From Escherichia phage D5505, in sequence record MK327929.1: 64,000 nucleotides of DNA, one strand, 5' to 3'. Numbering within the stretch: position 1 is the stretch's first letter; every line of letters starts with the position of its first letter. Position numbers and translations under genes: made by a program. This document shows, one piece after another, positions 17,761 to 25,489 of the stretch. The notes under the pieces were generated by a model, which saw nothing but the letters and a program-made list of their open reading frames with translations, was not told the DNA's origin and did not search any database.

Positions 17761-19809
17761 TTATCCTTGAACGAACTTGTAAGGCATGTTTGCAATATCT
17801 ATGCAAGACGCAATAATTCCAAGAGATGATTCTACTTTCTGTTTAACATTTGATGAAACAAATGATGCAAAGTCAACTCTATCTTCTATATCACCTGTCA
17901 TTGTAACCAATTCACCAGTTTCCATTAAATGGTCTCCGTCATAGATTACCGATTCGGTGAGTTCTTCTGTGGTCATAACTTCAGCTTGAATAAGCTTGTT
18001 GTTAGTTTTAACTGTTCCATCATTGTAAGATGCATCGGTTATTTTATTAACTTTGACCATTAATCCACGTGGCAAAATGACTTCCATTTCATTTGAAGGT
18101 GCTAAACTTCCACCGGGTAAAACAACATTGACCTTATCAGCCCCAGTAATAACCCATCCAATTCCAACTAAATTATCGCTAGAATTTACTAGTCCTTCAT
18201 CAGTTTTATCAATAGAAACACTTAGACGCTTTTCGTCTGGTAAAACACCTACAGATGAATCAGTCATCCAAGTACCAAAAATATTTGGATATAATGATGT
18301 TGACACAAAGTTTCTAAAATAAAAAACTCGATTTTTTACCATTGCTTCATATATTGAAGGTAACATTCGTTGTGAACGATACAAAGTAATACCTTTTGGT
18401 AATCGTTCACCATTTTTAAAGGCTGAATCTAAATTATCAATAGCTTTTTCTATGTCAGATGCTGTCAAAATACTTGTACGCTCATCTGGATTATATAATC
18501 CCAAAAGAGCATTATTTATATCTACATATCCTGAACCTACGTATTCACGAATTCCGCGTTTTTGCGCCGGTGTGTATTTAGATGAATCTTTATTTTCGAC
18601 TATAGGATGTAATGACCATCCAGCTGTAAGAGCATATCCACGTAATTCTCTTCGAATAATCTTTGTTTTTATTGCATTCCAAGAATTTTGTACTAACTCA
18701 TTTGCAGCATCTTGATTTAAATGCGAATGTTTGTTAATATTTCTTTCAAACCAAGCACCTTTATATTTTTCTAAAGTATCATCGACGATAGAAGCAATAG
18801 TTTCTAAAGTTTTTATTGAAGTAATAGATTCTTTTCGTAATCTTTCTAAAGCTTTATTTTTTATTTCTGTATTAACATCAGATTCTTTATCTTCAGGAAT
18901 TATAGAAGCTTCTCTGAATGCCATTCCAGCTGTAACACTATTAAGAGCATTCTCTAATGCAAATCCTGAAGTAGAAATAACAGTTAATTCGTTAGCATCG
19001 GAAATTAAAGGCGCATCAGCGGGTTTATTTAATTCTGCTGCTGAAGCCTCAAATTTTTGAAACATCGGTGTTTCAAATCTAGAAGATTCCAATGATTGAC
19101 TTTGCGCAATTGCTCTACGGGAAATTTTAACTTTAACGATTACAGCTTGGTCAGAACGTTTATCATTTTCTTGTGCAATAGATGCTGCAATTGCCTCATT
19201 TTTAGTTACTTGAGCTCCAGTATCTTTATTGATATAAACATCACCGACCTTCGATTCAACTTTAGTAAAGAGCTCGGTACTAATTTCTGGAACTCCTGGA
19301 ATGTCTTCTAGTGATACATTTTTGCGATGTATAAGAATATATGCATACTTTTTATCATAATCCCAGAGTTCCTTAAGAAGGACGTATCTGCCACCTGAAC
19401 GACTACGGATAAGTCTATCAGCAATAACTTGAATTTGTCGAGCTTGACCAGCGGTTTTAGACTTAAGAATACGGAGCATACAAGCATCAATTTTATATTG
19501 ACGCATTGTTTGCATTGCAACAGTAAAAACTGAATTGATATAATTAATTGGGCTTGGCCCAAGACCTTTCAATTTAGCAATTGAACCTTTAGCGGTTAAT
19601 GTAAAAGGAACAATATGCATCATTTTATCGCCCATTTTTAAATCGCGATTAGTATCACCTCCAGATGTATAGGTACATAAACGAAAGCCTGGCTGTTCAA
19701 TTGCATCATCAACGTGAACTGAAAAAATTTGCGGTATTTTCTTCTTTGGATTTAAGTTTGTAATCGGAAGAGTAGTATCTTCGTCAAATAATTCTGTAAT
19801 GAGTTCCAT
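17761..19809 (-). CDS. alt: Alt ADP-ribosyltransferase (packaged, injected)
   Basis: 682 aa from second ATG; motifs LYRSQ, FVSTSL, EVILPRG; matches remembered T4 Alt. Confidence 0.85.
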   Translation of the reverse strand: MELITELFDEDTTLPITNLNPKKKIPQIFSVHVDDAIEQPGFRLCTYTSGGDTNRDLKMGDKMMHIVPFTLTAKGSIAKLKGLGPSPINYINSVFTVAMQTMRQYKIDACMLRILKSKTAGQARQIQVIADRLIRSRSGGRYVLLKELWDYDKKYAYILIHRKNVSLEDIPGVPEISTELFTKVESKVGDVYINKDTGAQVTKNEAIAASIAQENDKRSDQAVIVKVKISRRAIAQSQSLESSRFETPMFQKFEASAAELNKPADAPLISDANELTVISTSGFALENALNSVTAGMAFREASIIPEDKESDVNTEIKNKALERLRKESITSIKTLETIASIVDDTLEKYKGAWFERNINKHSHLNQDAANELVQNSWNAIKTKIIRRELRGYALTAGWSLHPIVENKDSSKYTPAQKRGIREYVGSGYVDINNALLGLYNPDERTSILTASDIEKAIDNLDSAFKNGERLPKGITLYRSQRMLPSIYEAMVKNRVFYFRNFVSTSLYPNIFGTWMTDSSVGVLPDEKRLSVSIDKTDEGLVNSSDNLVGIGWVITGADKVNVVLPGGSLAPSNEMEVILPRGLMVKVNKITDASYNDGTVKTNNKLIQAEVMTTEELTESVIYDGDHLMETGELVTMTGDIEDRVDFASFVSSNVKQKVESSLGIIASCIDIANMPYKFVQG

Positions 19810-19832
19810 CATATCCTCTCTAGTGTTTATTC

Positions 19833-19861: not shown

Positions 19862-20050
19862 TTAATAATCTATTGGTAAGAGAGTACGGTATATTTCAAA
19901 CTTTGGACCTTTTTCATAGGCATCAAATGTTTCTGTGAATTTATTATAAGCATATGCATCTACAAATTCGAGAATGACTTGTGATACAGAAGTAGAAACA
20001 TCTCCACCTTCTTTTTGAGCAATGACAATTGTTTCTAAGTAAGCTTTCAT
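19862..20050 (-). CDS. hypothetical protein
   Basis: 62-aa ORF, ATGA overlap with the gene 30 stop. Confidence 0.4.
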   Translation of the reverse strand: MKAYLETIVIAQKEGGDVSTSVSQVILEFVDAYAYNKFTETFDAYEKGPKFEIYRTLLPIDY

Positions 20051-21510
20051 AGACCAGTTACCTCATGAAAATCACCAAATACATCCTCGAATGTATTAGC
20101 TTTAGTTTTATCTTCACGTAAACGAATCGCAATCGGAAGAAATAATTTAACGTAATCAGTGCGGCCATCAGATTTTAACCAACCGTTGCATTCGCACTCT
20201 AGAATTTTTCCAATATAATAATTTTGGTTTTCCATAATGCGAGTACGGTCAAGTTCATGCGATTTTACACCGGCTTTATCTTTTAAGCCTGAACCAGCAT
20301 TTACTTTAATTTTTCCACACTCTGACTCAAGAATAAATCCACCTGCTTTAGTAGGGTCTTTACGGTGAGGATAAATTCCTACAATTTTTAAATCAACATC
20401 AATTACTTCTTTAAATTTATAGAGATTTTTTGAACGAGCATTTTCCCATAATCCATCGATATTTTTGAGAATAATACCTTCAAGACCTTGGTCAATATAC
20501 TTTTTATAAATTACCTTAGCTTCATCTAGGTTATTTACTACCTGGTTTTCAATTAAAATTACTTTATCATATCCCGATGTCATTTGTTCTAGTTTAGAAA
20601 AACGTACATCATATTTTAAACGAAACGCTGGAAGACCGTATATTTCTACCAACGGGACATAATCCCAGACCTGAAACTTCATACATTGAGCTTCTTTTTC
20701 AGAAATGGTTCCTTTTAAGGATTTATTGGCGATTCCATTAGAAGTAGTACGAGATTCCGCTACTTCGGCGAATTCTTTGGCTTTACTAATTTCAGGATAA
20801 GCATCAAAAAGAAAATCTAGGCCTTCTGGTTCCTTTTTAACTTGCTCATGGTATACCAATTCGCCATCAATTAACACACCTTCTGGATGAATCTGGCGGG
20901 CTTCAGCAGTCATTTTGATTAACTCTTCCTTAAGAAGATCTAATCCTAGATATTCATTACCAGCTCGTGATAAAAGACGAACATCATCTAATTCATCGCC
21001 TCGGACTTCAGCAAAACACCGAGCTCCATCTGCTTTTAACTGCGCAAAGGCTGGAAACTTGATATTCTTATTAATGCCTTTTTCATCATAAGAACTTGCA
21101 AGCATTTGAGGTTGTTCAGGAATTAAACCTGGCCAAACTTTATTTGCAATAGATACTGAAGCACCGCATTCAAGGTCTCGCATCATAACTCGACGCAAAA
21201 CTTCAACATCATCCTTTTTACCATCAGTGATATATCCAGTTAATTCCTCAATTGCAGCATTTCCAGTCAATTTCCGAGTAGCTAACGTGAATTCAATGAA
21301 GTCAAGCATATCGGTAATAGTCAGCATTCCAAAACTCTGGGTAGCAATACCCGGTTTAGGCCATTTCTTGATATAATACTGTAACCCACGAGAATAAGTC
21401 AGACGATATACTCGTTTAAGCAATTCATTATCTTTATTCTTTTCAAGAATTGCTTGCTTCTGCTTAGTTGAACCAATAGATGCTATTTCGTTCAGAATTT
21501 TAAGAATCAT
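20047..21510 (-). CDS. 30: ATP-dependent DNA ligase gp30
   Basis: 487 aa; adenylation motif AQLKADGARCF. Confidence 0.9.
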   Translation of the reverse strand: MILKILNEIASIGSTKQKQAILEKNKDNELLKRVYRLTYSRGLQYYIKKWPKPGIATQSFGMLTITDMLDFIEFTLATRKLTGNAAIEELTGYITDGKKDDVEVLRRVMMRDLECGASVSIANKVWPGLIPEQPQMLASSYDEKGINKNIKFPAFAQLKADGARCFAEVRGDELDDVRLLSRAGNEYLGLDLLKEELIKMTAEARQIHPEGVLIDGELVYHEQVKKEPEGLDFLFDAYPEISKAKEFAEVAESRTTSNGIANKSLKGTISEKEAQCMKFQVWDYVPLVEIYGLPAFRLKYDVRFSKLEQMTSGYDKVILIENQVVNNLDEAKVIYKKYIDQGLEGIILKNIDGLWENARSKNLYKFKEVIDVDLKIVGIYPHRKDPTKAGGFILESECGKIKVNAGSGLKDKAGVKSHELDRTRIMENQNYYIGKILECECNGWLKSDGRTDYVKLFLPIAIRLREDKTKANTFEDVFGDFHEVTGL

Positions 21511-21776
21511 TGTTCATCCTTTAGAGTTTGGTTTACAGCTCTATTATAAATCAATTCATCATTAAGCTCAGTCAAAGACCTGTGGTACGTGGTTCTAACT
21601 TTATTTCCTTGCATCCAGTGCTTGACGTAAATGAAACCTTGCTCTACACATTTTTTAAAAATTCGTTCGTCTTTTTGAGCTCGGAATTCTGGATTGCATC
21701 TAAAAAATTGATTTACGTGACCGTAATCACGTGTAGTATTACCTTCATTTTCATAAATAGTGTGAACAACAAACAT
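21507..21776 (-). CDS. hypothetical protein (30.1 position)
   Basis: 89-aa ORF. Confidence 0.5.
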   Translation of the reverse strand: MFVVHTIYENEGNTTRDYGHVNQFFRCNPEFRAQKDERIFKKCVEQGFIYVKHWMQGNKVRTTYHRSLTELNDELIYNRAVNQTLKDEQ

Positions 21777-22615
21777 TAGAATGCTCCTTGGAAAATATTA
21801 TCACCACTAGTAAATCTATTAAAATATCCTGCATCACCAGGCTTAGTATAACTCCACGTATGGAATGGATTCATATGATACGGGTGTGTATAATATGGAT
21901 TATACGGATTAAATCCAGGAGTTCTCCAGGTAGTGTTCCAACGAAAAGAATCGTTTTTAACCATCTTCTCAATTACATCTTTTATAGCTTTTTCACTATC
22001 AAAACTTTCTTTATTTTCCTTCGGTGAAAAAAGCTTATTTTCTACATCATTCCATGTATAAACTCGCTGCGCAGTTTTTGGAATATTGTCACGCTCTCCT
22101 CGAGCCATCCAATAAACAGGAACATTTAATATTTCACTCGCATGATCGCAGTGGTGGGCGAGATCGTCAATATAACAAATTACATTATATTTCTCTTTTG
22201 CCTTTTTGAATAACTCTTCTTTTGAAGAATCATGACCACACATCATTACTTCTGAGAAGGCACCAGGAAAAAGAGCATTCAAATTAAATTGACGATTCAG
22301 CAGAGCGTCAATAGAATCACCCAATGCTGTAACAGCTACAAAATTATAATCTTCTTTTAGTTTGTTAATTACGCACAGGGCATCTTTATATGGAGACAGG
22401 TAACGAATAAAATCTGATCGATTGTATTTTTCAATTAGCTTGGCACCAAGTTCTTCATCACAATTAAAGAGTTTACCCGGAGAAATAAATTTCTCATCTT
22501 GGATCATTTTTAAAATATGTTCTAACGGAAGATTATATTTCTGAGCAAAATAAGGAAGACCTGATTGCCAGCTTAAACATACTCCATCAATATCAGTTAA
22601 AATAGTAGGCTTCAT
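21776..22615 (-). CDS. HAD-superfamily hydrolase-like protein (30.2 position)
   Basis: 279 aa; N-terminal ILTDIDGV resembles HAD motif I, YIDD resembles motif IV. Confidence 0.5.
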   Translation of the reverse strand: MKPTILTDIDGVCLSWQSGLPYFAQKYNLPLEHILKMIQDEKFISPGKLFNCDEELGAKLIEKYNRSDFIRYLSPYKDALCVINKLKEDYNFVAVTALGDSIDALLNRQFNLNALFPGAFSEVMMCGHDSSKEELFKKAKEKYNVICYIDDLAHHCDHASEILNVPVYWMARGERDNIPKTAQRVYTWNDVENKLFSPKENKESFDSEKAIKDVIEKMVKNDSFRWNTTWRTPGFNPYNPYYTHPYHMNPFHTWSYTKPGDAGYFNRFTSGDNIFQGAF

Positions 22616-23076
22616 AGAGAGTCTCTTAATAGGTTTAACACATCAATAAATTCAGCTTCGGTTAGTATTGTATCATCTTTTGTTAGACCACTAGCCATGC
22701 TGTGCTTCAAAACTTTTCCTTTCGAGGCTTGTAATGCATCGCGAAAGCCCCTGTTTTGGAACGCTGCTTCAAAATATGCATTTGTGTATAATTCTTTCCA
22801 CACTGGAGAGTATCTTGAAAACGGAACTCCAAGCCAGAAGAGGGTCCCACGGTCCTGAGCTCTAGCATAAGACCTTCCAGCTTGTTGGGCGGCAAGCCCG
22901 GATAACCCAAATATACGACGTTGCTGTTCAATATTTTTCACCTTACACCCTTGGAGGAATCCTTCGAGACCTCCAAATTGGATACCATCCATAACAAAAG
23001 GCCATTGGGCGAAATTACTTAATGCGCATGATGGCCATCTAAAATTGCTTCTAATCTCTAACTCAGACATTTTCAA
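22612..23076 (-). CDS. NADAR/YbiA-like (DUF1768-type) protein (30.3 position)
   Basis: 154 aa; LSNFAQWPFVMDG resembles the YbiA/NADAR N-terminal signature as I remember it; needs HMM confirmation. Confidence 0.45.
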   Translation of the reverse strand: MKMSELEIRSNFRWPSCALSNFAQWPFVMDGIQFGGLEGFLQGCKVKNIEQQRRIFGLSGLAAQQAGRSYARAQDRGTLFWLGVPFSRYSPVWKELYTNAYFEAAFQNRGFRDALQASKGKVLKHSMASGLTKDDTILTEAEFIDVLNLLRDSL

Positions 23077-23269
23077 TACTTATAATTTCAACATCAGCCC
23101 AATGACCATAGCAAGGAAGACGAAATTCAACTGGCCAGTTAGGGTCCTTTTCTAATATAATAGACTTAACTTGTGGTTCTTCGTGTTCATCAGTATATGG
23201 ATTTTTATCTGTTACTTTATATGTGACCTTAATGTACTGAATTCCAAAAATCTTATTAATTATATTCAT
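23063..23269 (-). CDS. hypothetical protein
   Basis: 68-aa ORF. Confidence 0.45.
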   Translation of the reverse strand: MNIINKIFGIQYIKVTYKVTDKNPYTDEHEEPQVKSIILEKDPNWPVEFRLPCYGHWADVEIISIENV

Positions 23270-23463
23270 ACTAATTCCTTTAATCCGTAGATAGGAGATA
23301 ATTCATCACCCATACGAAGGTCTTCATTTCCATCTACCCAGGAAACAATATAAGCCTCTTTTATTTGAATACCACTCCATTTAAATGGAGGTAGAACCTT
23401 AGAAATTAATCCAGGTATACCAACTCCCTTTAATTCAACAGTTTGACCTAAAAAGAATTTCAT
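23266..23463 (-). CDS. hypothetical protein
   Basis: 65-aa ORF. Confidence 0.45.
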   Translation of the reverse strand: MKFFLGQTVELKGVGIPGLISKVLPPFKWSGIQIKEAYIVSWVDGNEDLRMGDELSPIYGLKELV

Positions 23464-23705
23464 TAAAACCTCATCTGAAAACCGTGCGATTTAACATTAC
23501 CGCCATTAATATCAGAACTATTAATTTCACGTGCAATTGAGGGATCAATGTCAATTTCGCGATTGAGTTTAGTGATAGCTAAAGTATCGCGCCCATTTAC
23601 AGTACGGAACTCTAAAGGGCAGACTACATTAACGTAGTTTTTAATCGATTCACTGGTAGGTTGCAAATGTGCAGGAAGGTCTTTAGGCGCCTTTGAGAAA
23701 ACCAC
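23463..23705 (-). CDS. hypothetical protein; no in-frame ATG (GTG start or frameshifted)
   Basis: 80-aa ORF begins at GTG without SD; an ATG with good SD lies one frame off just upstream. Confidence 0.35.
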   Translation of the reverse strand: MVFSKAPKDLPAHLQPTSESIKNYVNVVCPLEFRTVNGRDTLAITKLNREIDIDPSIAREINSSDINGGNVKSHGFQMRF

Positions 23706-23765
23706 TTCACAAAATTTTTACGGGTATCAAAATAAGTAGTCATAAACATAACATTTTCCTCAGTA

Positions 23766-23783
23766 AGGGGCCAAAGCCCCTCA
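23766..23783 (-). terminator. hairpin GGGGC-CAAA-GCCCC
   Basis: GC stem-loop between ORFs. Confidence 0.4.
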
Positions 23784-23789
23784 TTTATT

Positions 23790-24155
23790 TTAAATATCAA
23801 ATTCGTTAAGAACTACATCAAAGATTGCTTCAAGATGCTCAGGTTTAGCTCTGTTACTCAGAATATGACGAATCCAAGTTTTAACCAAAAGCTTGCGATT
23901 AACGCCATTCCAGCAAGGATGAGTCCCTAAATCGCGTTCACGGAAATCATCATCCAGAGCGATTTTAAAGTTGGAACCTTCCATCGTGATTGAAACCGTG
24001 ATACCGTTTTCAAATCGCATATAAACGTAATTAGGAGTCATATACTGCTCAATTTCGCATACTGATCCATTTTGATGTTTCCAAAGGCAAATAGTATCAA
24101 TAGAACCTGCAATACCATTAGAAACATATTTACGTTCAAAGTTGATGTAGTTCAT
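23790..24155 (-). CDS. hypothetical protein (30.7 position)
   Basis: 121 aa from ATG (track ORF starts at upstream TTG). Confidence 0.45.
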   Translation of the reverse strand: MNYINFERKYVSNGIAGSIDTICLWKHQNGSVCEIEQYMTPNYVYMRFENGITVSITMEGSNFKIALDDDFRERDLGTHPCWNGVNRKLLVKTWIRHILSNRAKPEHLEAIFDVVLNEFDI

Positions 24156-24180
24156 TTTATTATCCAAGATGTTTAATTGC

Positions 24181-24220
24181 GGTACAGGTATATAATATCA
24201 TATCCTGTACCAAAGTAAAC
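24181..24220 (-). promoter_or_regulatory. early promoter (GTTTACT ... TATTAT) embedded in an 8-bp inverted repeat
   Basis: GGTACAGG - 15 nt - CCTGTACC palindrome encloses the -10 region. Confidence 0.45.
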
Positions 24221-24222
24221 AA

Positions 24223-24555
24223 TTATTTTACTACTTTCCAATGCTGCATGTCAAGTTTACCAACTTTTTTCATCTTCTCAATTAAGCGTTCGGCACGTTG
24301 GCGAGCTGTAACATAATACCATTCACCTAATTCATTTTGTTCAATTTTTCCAACGATTACTGTATTCAATTCATAAATCCAACCAGTAAAGAAATTATGA
24401 ACTTGAATTGTAAAGGTGAAATCTGTTCCCATACCTTCTGTTGTTTCTACTTCAATAATATCACCTTCAACTGCCATTAAGAACCACATAGTTTCATCAT
24501 ATTTACCATTGAAGCATTTAGTTTTAACTGCAGCGTTCAGATTAATCGTTTTCAT
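24223..24555 (-). CDS. hypothetical protein (30.8 position)
   Basis: 110-aa ORF with ATG. Confidence 0.5.
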   Translation of the reverse strand: MKTINLNAAVKTKCFNGKYDETMWFLMAVEGDIIEVETTEGMGTDFTFTIQVHNFFTGWIYELNTVIVGKIEQNELGEWYYVTARQRAERLIEKMKKVGKLDMQHWKVVK

Positions 24556-24582
24556 TTTATTCTCCTTTGTTTGTGTAAGATA

Positions 24583-24612
24583 ATACTATCACAAAGGAAC
24601 CATACTGTAAAC
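24583..24612 (-). promoter_or_regulatory. early promoter GTTTACA - 17 nt - TAGTAT
   Basis: T4 early promoter consensus on the minus strand, preceded by hairpin 24642-24659. Confidence 0.5.
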
Positions 24613-24665
24613 AACTTTATGCAATCTTTGGAAAATAAAAAAGGACTCCCGAAGGAGTCCTCAAC

Positions 24666-24842
24666 TTATGCTTTCTGCTTACCAAAACGAGAAGCATCAT
24701 CTCGAAGAACCGCACGTGCTCGGCGCATGATCTTCTCAACAGTTTGATTGATACGAGAGTTCGACCCACGCTTGTAGCCAGCGCGTTTAGAATCACCAAC
24801 TTTCTTTTCAACTGCTTTCTTTGCTTTAGCTTGTTTTGCCAT
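24666..24842 (-). CDS. small basic protein (30.9 position)
   Basis: 58 aa from ATG 24842, Lys/Arg rich. Confidence 0.45.
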   Translation of the reverse strand: MAKQAKAKKAVEKKVGDSKRAGYKRGSNSRINQTVEKIMRRARAVLRDDASRFGKQKA

Positions 24843-25240
24843 TATAAATTCTCTTTTAAATGAAAATGCAGGACTTATTGGCATTGCCTGCGCAAGCCCT
24901 CAAGGGGAACATAGGTTTTTGGATATTTAACGACCAGGATAACCATAAACCCGTCATCATACCTTATAGCTCTTATCTGTTGCACACCGTTAGCTTAAAG
25001 GTTCCGGGTTCGATTTCTCGAGGATAAGATATATACTGATGGATATATAGGCCTTGAGGCGTACTCCCGATTGGCCATCACCTCGGGGTAGCATGCACTT
25101 GCCGCTATAAGAATAACATTCAAGAGGTACACCGTAAAACTGCCGGGGTCTTAAAACTATAATGATTCACAAATCATTAATCAGACAGTTCGACGGCTCC
25201 TCGTTTTAACTTCACACTAAGGCAGTGACTCTCCAATAAA

Positions 25241-25489
25241 TTACTTCAGTGTTACCACAAAGTGACGAACTGCTTTTCGTGCAGCAGAAGCCAGAGGCTT
25301 AGCATATTTAAGTTCATCTTTTTCCTGAAGCTCAGCAGCTAATGCAGTTTGAGCAGGATTCAGATGTTTGAAATAACGCAGGATTTCAAGAGCTTCGGCT
25401 TCAACATCAATAGATGCGCCATAGTTTTCGTGACCATTATTCCATGCGTTTCGTTGCAGTTCAAGAGCGTGTTGTAATTGTTTAATCAT
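25241..25489 (-). CDS. rIII: RIII lysis-inhibition accessory protein
   Basis: 82 aa, position beside gene 31, length as T4 rIII. Confidence 0.8.
   Translation of the reverse strand: MIKQLQHALELQRNAWNNGHENYGASIDVEAEALEILRYFKHLNPAQTALAAELQEKDELKYAKPLASAARKAVRHFVVTLK

Follow-up and report, generated by a model that had tools for sequence, protein, structure and literature searches.

Genes 30.3 (adfN) and 30.2 of the T4-like Escherichia phage D5505: an intact NADAR allele and a predicted NT5C-like HAD phosphatase, very likely independent neighbors

NADAR enzymes and the T-even locus

NADAR enzymes reverse the ADP-ribosylation of guanine, and those of phages carry a His where others have a Glu or Asp in the last strand (Schuller et al., PMC11543638); Glu and Lys serve in catalysis (E36 and K43 of T4 AdfN), and it is the last-strand His that constitutes the phage-NADAR hallmark (PMC11825919, PMC11543638, PMC11125620). 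In 2024, the gp30.3 NADAR of an E. coli phage was reported to hydrolyze guanine-ADPr in vitro, with specificity for guanine-ADPr (PMC11125620). Johannesman et al. renamed T4 gene 30.3 adfN (anti-DarT factor NADAR), and T4 AdfN proved to be both necessary and sufficient for resistance to DarTG1; the purified protein strips ADP-ribose from DNA and is impaired by the substitutions E36A and K43A and by loss of the C-terminal helix (PMC11825919). Phage RB69 is DarTG1-sensitive, as a frameshift truncates its adfN allele and the lost C-terminal helix reduces activity (PMC11825919). In uninfected cells, AdfN fails to neutralize DarT1, and its rescue of phages T5 or Bas25 is marginal (PMC11825919; also PMC11125620), and the authors of the AdfN study suspect that an additional T-even factor is needed in vivo (PMC11825919).

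The window, i.e., the whole 64,000-nucleotide stretch of Escherichia phage D5505 that was analyzed, represents a T4-like (Tequatrovirus) genome. Over the 1.9 kb around genes 30.2 and 30.3, which match 693 Tequatrovirus-type records, identity to Escherichia phages ES12 and 132 is 98.6%, and the minus-strand order is that of T4: alt, alt.1, 30 (ligase), 30.1, 30.2, 30.3, 30.4. The features relevant to the locus are as follows.

17761..19812, minus strand: alt, packaged and injected ADP-ribosyltransferase, given for context only (99% identity to T4 Alt over 501 aa)
20047..21510, minus strand: gene 30, ATP-dependent DNA ligase, 487 aa (T4 synteny)
21507..21776, minus strand: gene 30.1 (DUF3045, 89 aa), between the HAD and ligase genes (Pfam PF11243, 2.9e-64; T4 synteny)
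21776..22615, minus strand: gene 30.2, 279-aa HAD-superfamily protein, predicted NT5C-like phosphatase
22612..22615, minus strand: ATGA overlap of 4 nt between the 30.2 start codon and the 30.3 stop codon (read directly from the sequence)
22612..23070, minus strand: gene 30.3 (adfN), 152-aa NADAR-superfamily protein, predicted DNA ADP-ribosylglycohydrolase (ORF and translation, T4 identity, Pfam, model)
22963-22965, 22942-22944 and 22702-22704, minus strand: adfN catalytic codons E36, K43 and H123, respectively (translation)
23063..23269, minus strand: gene 30.4, 68 aa, directly upstream of adfN and overlapping its start (ORF; phrog_2042; T4 synteny)

A first-pass annotation of this DNA had proposed that a HAD-like hydrolase gene and an overlapping downstream NADAR/YbiA-like gene, lying next to DNA ligase in a phage that also injects an ADP-ribosyltransferase, form a paired module with a salvage or anti-defense function. 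Both ORFs exist on the minus strand: one of 279 aa, in which residues 5-12 read ILTDIDGV and residues 148-151 YIDD, the other of 154 aa containing LSNFAQWPFVMDG; the injected ADP-ribosyltransferase is likewise present, in the form of Alt. The two genes do overlap, but, read along the coding strand, the NADAR gene lies upstream of the HAD gene rather than downstream, and the HAD gene is set apart from the ligase gene by gene 30.1. Stop/start overlaps are usual across this block of genes, and since 30.4/30.3 (8 nt), 30.2/30.1 (1 nt) and 30.1/30 (4 nt) overlap likewise, the ATGA junction is not specific evidence of coupling. A scan of positions 21300-25300 for promoters and terminators gave counts not above those expected from shuffled sequence (promoter-like sites, 19 vs. 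14.1 ± 4.1; terminator-like sites, 3 vs. 2.1).

The adfN allele of phage D5505

The ORF finder reported gene 30.3 in a 154-aa form with a TTG start at 23076 (22612-23076). The ATG at 23070 appears to be the more likely start, because a protein of 152 aa agrees with the length annotated in T4 and with the residue numbers published for E36 and K43. In this form, the protein is 97% identical to T4 gp30.3 over all 152 residues and differs from it by five conservative substitutions (I47V, V90A, F104I, R107K and M125I) that leave the catalytic positions untouched. It is full length and, like the T4 protein, ends in ...EFIDVLNLLRDSL, with a helix at residues 138-151 of the model. E36, K43 and H123 are all present; E36 and H123 do not vary among 47 homologues, in which K43 is at least 90% conserved.

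The family membership of the protein is supported by several independent lines. Pfam PF08010 (Phage_30_3) matches with an E-value of 1.6e-68 (229.3 bits; cut-off, 36) over profile positions 1-138 of 138. A search of PDB sequences with the single 30.3 sequence returned nothing usable; distant PDB relatives of both 30.3 and 30.2 were sought with family profiles, single-sequence searches being too weak. A profile built from the 47 gp30.3 homologues reaches E. coli YbiA (E 0.002) exactly over the pattern SNFA..PF..DG..E..Q..KF. The AF2 model has a pLDDT of 93.5, and its top three Foldseek matches are YbiA (2b3w; E 3.3e-5, TM 0.69), PnNADAR of Phytophthora (8bau) and the DarT1-linked GlNADAR of Geobacter (8bat), while all PDB matches beyond these three NADAR structures have E-values above 2. 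Neither NCBIfam nor PADLOC returned a match for the 30.3 or the 30.2 protein. Taken together, the Pfam match, the fold, the catalytic residues and the identity to T4 AdfN place 30.3 in the phage gp30.3/AdfN family of the NADAR superfamily. The first-pass annotation had made this assignment from a short motif and had called for profile searches and structure prediction, and both bear it out. The SNFA..PF..DG..E..Q..KF motif in this ORF, as well as the HAD motifs in its neighbor, are more than chance resemblances.

By analogy with the T4 protein, gp30.3 would be a small stand-alone NADAR enzyme that cleaves the N-glycosidic bond linking ADP-ribose to guanine in DNA. Catalysis would proceed via E36 and K43, the residues identified by mutation in T4 AdfN, presumably with the participation of H123. 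Such an enzyme would clear the marks of host DarT1 from phage DNA, allowing replication to continue in DarTG1-carrying hosts. Given the 97% identity, the attribution of a de-ADP-ribosylating, anti-DarTG1 function to the 30.3 of the window may be regarded as correct. This function is already known, having been published for T4 in 2024-25 (PMC11825919, PMC11125620), and the idea in the first-pass annotation that the locus removes ADP-ribose from DNA as an anti-defense measure holds for the NADAR gene, though not for the HAD gene. adfN matters as a phage counter-defense against DarTG1 DNA ADP-ribosylation, to which the window adds only another intact allele.

Gene 30.2 and the NT5C branch of the HAD superfamily

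The 30.2 protein of the window is 93% identical to T4 gp30.2. It occurs in 1457 phage records (Straboviridae), and those sampled are mostly labeled hypothetical; PHROGs assigns it to phrog_420, of unknown function. No functional or biochemical work on gp30.2 came up in literature searches for this protein, alone or combined with AdfN. Its parts map as follows.

22016-22615 (approximate), minus strand: gp30.2 catalytic core and C1 helical cap, residues 1-200
21779-22015, minus strand: gp30.2 disordered aromatic/Pro/Asn-rich tail, residues 201-279
22580-22594, minus strand: gp30.2 motif I (D8-I-D10-G-V)
22328-22330, minus strand: gp30.2 T96
22220-22222, minus strand: gp30.2 K132
22163-22168, minus strand: gp30.2 D150-D151

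All four HAD motifs are complete: motif I, DxDx(T/V), as D8-I-D10-G-V12, motif II as T96, motif III as K132 and motif IV as D150-D151. D8, D10 and K132 never vary among 44 homologues, in which conservation at T96, D150 and D151 is 90% or more, and the invariance of D8, D10 and K132 persists in a set of 45 sequences that includes relatives at 22-33% identity. The predicted structure comprises a Rossmann-like HAD core with a full four-helix C1 cap (residues about 13-90), followed by a tail (residues 201-279) that is predicted to be disordered and is variable or absent in other lineages. In Pfam, the window protein stays below threshold (HAD_2, E 0.14, 12.7 bits vs. 23.8) and does not itself match NT5C (PF06941), while among the 44 family members subthreshold matches to PF00702 and HAD_2 occur in 12 and 6 cases, respectively. 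The profile check that the first-pass annotation had wanted for this ORF thus falls short in Pfam, whereas the motifs in the 44 homologues and the predicted fold speak for HAD. By its fold and all four catalytic motifs, gp30.2 belongs to the HAD superfamily, as had been proposed, even though it is sub-threshold in Pfam.

Within this superfamily, the best PDB sequence match of gp30.2, for both the single sequence (E 1.5) and the profile, is the mouse cytosolic 5′(3′)-deoxyribonucleotidase (cdN). The alignment pairs DGVLADFESGL of cdN with DGVCLSWQSGL of gp30.2, placing Trp16 on the cap Phe, eight residues past the nucleophile. In cdN and mdN, we take this Phe to be the base-stacking residue. 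Trp16 is invariant in the 44 gp30.2 homologues and at least 90% conserved in the 45-sequence set with distant relatives. Subthreshold NT5C matches are found in 10 of the 44 close homologues (best, 1.2e-4). An exhaustive gp30.2 profile search yielded 1354 cluster representatives; 20 of 44 relatives at E about 1e-21 match NT5C, and two relatives retrieved by the profile at that level pass the NT5C cut-off (35.6 and 36.8 bits vs. 24.8). A look for informative domain fusions in the distant relatives P0244, P0298, P0197 and P0235 showed extra regions without a Pfam match. The most specific affinity of gp30.2 appears to be to the NT5C 5′(3′)-deoxyribonucleotidase branch, the placement being transitive.

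From its motifs and fold, gp30.2 can be read as an active Mg2+-dependent HAD phosphomonoesterase acting on a small substrate. Asp8 would be the nucleophile that forms the phospho-aspartyl intermediate and Asp10 the general acid/base; Thr96 and Lys132 would grip the phosphate, with the metal bound by Asp150/Asp151. Because the invariant Trp16 of the four-helix C1 cap sits where 5′(3′)-deoxyribonucleotidases have their base-stacking Phe, the substrate is most likely a small phospho-ester and probably a (deoxy)nucleoside monophosphate. gp30.2, widespread in Straboviridae, may now be described as an NT5C-like HAD phosphatase with its catalytic motifs intact.

Genomic linkage and the relation between the two genes

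The distribution of the two genes in other viral genomes was assessed from both sides. Among 80 HAD-centered viral loci, a NADAR gene adjoins the HAD gene in 18 and lies within 2 kb in 19 (37/80 within 6 kb), and none occurs within 6 kb in the remaining 43; among 80 NADAR-centered loci, a HAD partner within 6 kb is present in 20 and absent in 60. Eight complete genomes possess both 30.2- and 30.3-type genes at a distance of 54-64 kb from each other, so that co-localization is not conserved across lineages. Where the genes are linked, their order is constant (NADAR upstream, same strand) across lineages down to about 40% identity, reaching distant Aeromonas- and Acinetobacter-type phages. A loose-threshold search around the unlinked NADAR genes turned up another HAD gene at one locus alone, L027; it is divergent and lies upstream of the NADAR gene, 1.7 kb away.

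The stable genomic partner of the HAD gene is DNA ligase, not adfN. A ligase homologue lies in the flank of 75 of the 80 HAD-centered loci, almost always immediately downstream, and near an unlinked NADAR gene in only 1 of 60 loci. The genes between HAD and ligase come and go, gene 30.1 being present in just 24 of the 80 HAD-centered loci. The HAD-ligase linkage offers a clue, although synteny of the T4 core might be all that lies behind it.

Published HIDEN-SEQ transposon data for T4 bear directly on the relation between the two genes (bioRxiv 10.1101/2025.11.20.689424). On K-12, insertions in 30.2 were obtained at 72 of 72 sites. In the comparison of control and DarTG1 hosts, for which the command line given lists a single replicate per condition, insertions in 30.3 were lost (log2FC -7.25, q 0), 30.2 was neutral (log2FC -0.12, p 0.61, q 1, 71 sites) and 30.4 displayed a mild DarTG1-dependent depletion (log2FC -1.79, q 0.014), while the DarTG2 screen had a single hit, tk.4 (bioRxiv 10.1101/2025.11.20.689424). 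The 30.2 rows used here are those for DarTG1, K-12 essentiality and the comparison of two independent libraries, with the RexAB, RnlAB, M9 and clinical-isolate rows left out. In the laboratory, the phage can do without gene 30.2, counter-defense against DarTG1 does not depend on it, and in these data the two genes are not both required for the same phenotype. The 30.2-neutral result also led to rejection of gp30.2 as the missing T-even cofactor of AdfN, which removes it from the list of candidates at least for the DarTG1 system tested.

In light of these data, it is very likely that 30.3 (adfN) and 30.2 (HAD phosphomonoesterase) are two independent T4-type genes that are neighbors by chance in the T-even lineage. 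The paired module of phosphatase and NADAR envisaged by the first-pass annotation finds no support, because 30.2 is neutral and 30.3 required on DarTG1 hosts, the genes are unlinked in many T4-like lineages, and the HAD gene tracks ligase. Given the constant linked order and the L027 locus, 30.2 and adfN may still have some functional relation under other conditions.

An unlikely alternative is that gp30.2 is a nucleotide-directed phosphatase in an unrecognized role: as a ligase partner, or as an anti-defense or pool-sanitizing enzyme that removes a toxic or signaling nucleoside monophosphate and possibly aids AdfN against other DarT variants, with the variable aromatic tail tethering it to a partner protein.

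A more specific proposal, that gp30.2 partners DNA ligase as a DNA-end 3′-phosphatase (comparable to the T4 polynucleotide kinase HAD domain) or as a remover of the ligase by-products AMP or pyrophosphate, draws on the persistence of the ligase directly beside the HAD gene in very divergent T4-like phages despite variable intervening genes, and on a weak PHROG match of gp30.2 to polynucleotide kinase (E 0.002). Nevertheless, gp30.2 possesses a full C1 helical cap. In HAD enzymes, a C1 cap usually limits access to small molecules, and DNA-end phosphatases of the Pnkp type have no cap. Moreover, the nearest sequence relatives of gp30.2 are NT5C nucleotidases, the ligase is essential and 30.2 is not, and in genomes as strongly syntenic as those of T4-like phages, adjacency to a core gene may be functionally meaningless; a ligase partnership is accordingly rated as quite improbable.

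Also quite improbable is a two-enzyme module in which gp30.2 processes ADP-ribose, ribose-5-phosphate or ADP-ribose-1″-phosphate, or supplies the T-even cofactor that AdfN lacks: the ATGA overlap, the retained order in 37 of 80 HAD-centered loci, the L027 arrangement and the poor performance of AdfN in uninfected cells and in T5 and Bas25, both devoid of 30.2, would accord with it, but the neutrality of 30.2 largely refutes it for DarTG1, the only DarTG2 hit is another gene, and 60 of 80 NADAR loci and the eight genomes with widely separated genes dispense with linkage. A paper on NARP3 NAD salvage contains no HAD or NADAR link.

The new content is modest, namely that gp30.2 is placed as NT5C-like and that its gene is linked to ligase, both genes being orthologues of characterized or catalogued T4 genes. 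With regard to known phosphatases, gp30.2 shares the HAD core and four-helix C1 cap with cdN and mdN (PF06941; 2jao, 2i7d, 1q92) and the S. epidermidis deoxyribonucleotidase-like protein 3bwv, which are among its best fold matches; also common to them are DxDGV, an aromatic residue eight positions on (Trp16 in gp30.2, Phe in the others) and the SGL and Y..S..F cap segment. It differs from this group in having just 15-21% identity to its members and an extra disordered aromatic tail of ~80 residues. The HAD domain of T4 polynucleotide kinase/phosphatase (PseT) lacks a cap and works on the 3′ ends of DNA or RNA, whereas gp30.2 has a closed C1 cap, as is typical for phosphatases of small molecules.

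The window 30.3 agrees with T4 AdfN in genomic position, catalytic E36 and K43, phage-type H123 and an intact C-terminal helix, and it differs from the truncated, inactive adfN of RB69 in being full length. With the DarG1/DarT1-associated NADAR antitoxins (BC4488 family; PDB 8bat) and with YbiA (2b3w), it has in common the NADAR fold and the catalytic Glu/Lys pair, the chemistry common to AdfN, DarG1-type NADARs and YbiA being hydrolysis of guanine-linked ADP-ribose. The last-strand catalytic residue is His in AdfN, Asp in DarG1 and Glu in YbiA. Unlike the DarG1-type antitoxins, AdfN is the product of an orphan gene without a toxin partner and does not neutralize DarT1 in uninfected cells.

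The HAD gene, DNA ligase and gene 30.1

Across very divergent T4-like phages, the DNA ligase gene directly adjoins the HAD gene in 75 of the 80 HAD-centred viral loci (L082-L161), an arrangement whose equivalent in the window spans 20047-22615. Gene 30.1, which lies between the two in the window, was found in only 24 of these 80 loci. One GenBank record names a HAD-gene homologue (P0076) "DNA ligase".

A single database protein, P0013 (302 aa, from a Logan contig of 1378 nt), carries the 30.2 HAD core fused in frame to the 30.1/DUF3045 domain, the window equivalent being 21507-22615. It is either a genuine fusion, hinting at a functional link between 30.2 and 30.1, or a product of read-through or an assembly artefact.

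The C-terminal tail of gp30.2

21779-22015, minus strand: tail of gp30.2, residues 201-279, rich in aromatic residues, Pro and Asn

The tail is predicted to be disordered, with pLDDT below 50 at most positions of residues 226-279. The tail is missing from many lineages, which encode forms of 196-220 aa, and its sequence has diverged from that of T4. Despite this divergence, the final nine residues, GDNIFQGAF, are the same as in T4; Klebsiella- and Enterobacter-type gp30.2 homologues instead have in common a GTGIEYL..QPTA motif. The end of the tail may be a short docking motif.

Reading frames overlapping adfN

23063-23269, minus strand: gene 30.4, adjoining adfN on its upstream side
22707-22931, minus strand: putative ORF 30.3', annotated in T4, within adfN in another reading frame

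Gene 30.4 overlaps the start of adfN, the NADAR gene, by 8 nt. In the transposon table comparing control and DarTG1 hosts, T4 gene 30.4 is slightly but significantly depleted on DarTG1 (log2FC -1.79, q 0.014; bioRxiv 10.1101/2025.11.20.689424), which could reflect a polar effect on adfN or a role of 30.4 as an accessory factor.

Among 14 adfN orthologues of the T-even and RB69-like type, 13 retain a stop-free stretch of 76 codons at ORF 30.3'; distant homologues lack it, their stop-free run amounting to just 22-60 codons.

Length variation of adfN

In a set of phage records the adfN query (window 22612-23070) aligned over residues 1-144 only. Such matches are not in themselves proof of truncation, because the sole locus of this kind that was translated, L006, encodes a full-length product of 152 aa. 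Public data contain many shortened adfN alleles, which form clusters of 83-126 aa; phages SV76, NR1 and UGJNEcP4 are examples. These shortened alleles suggest that the counter-defence gene adfN is often lost or varied, beyond the known frameshift in RB69.
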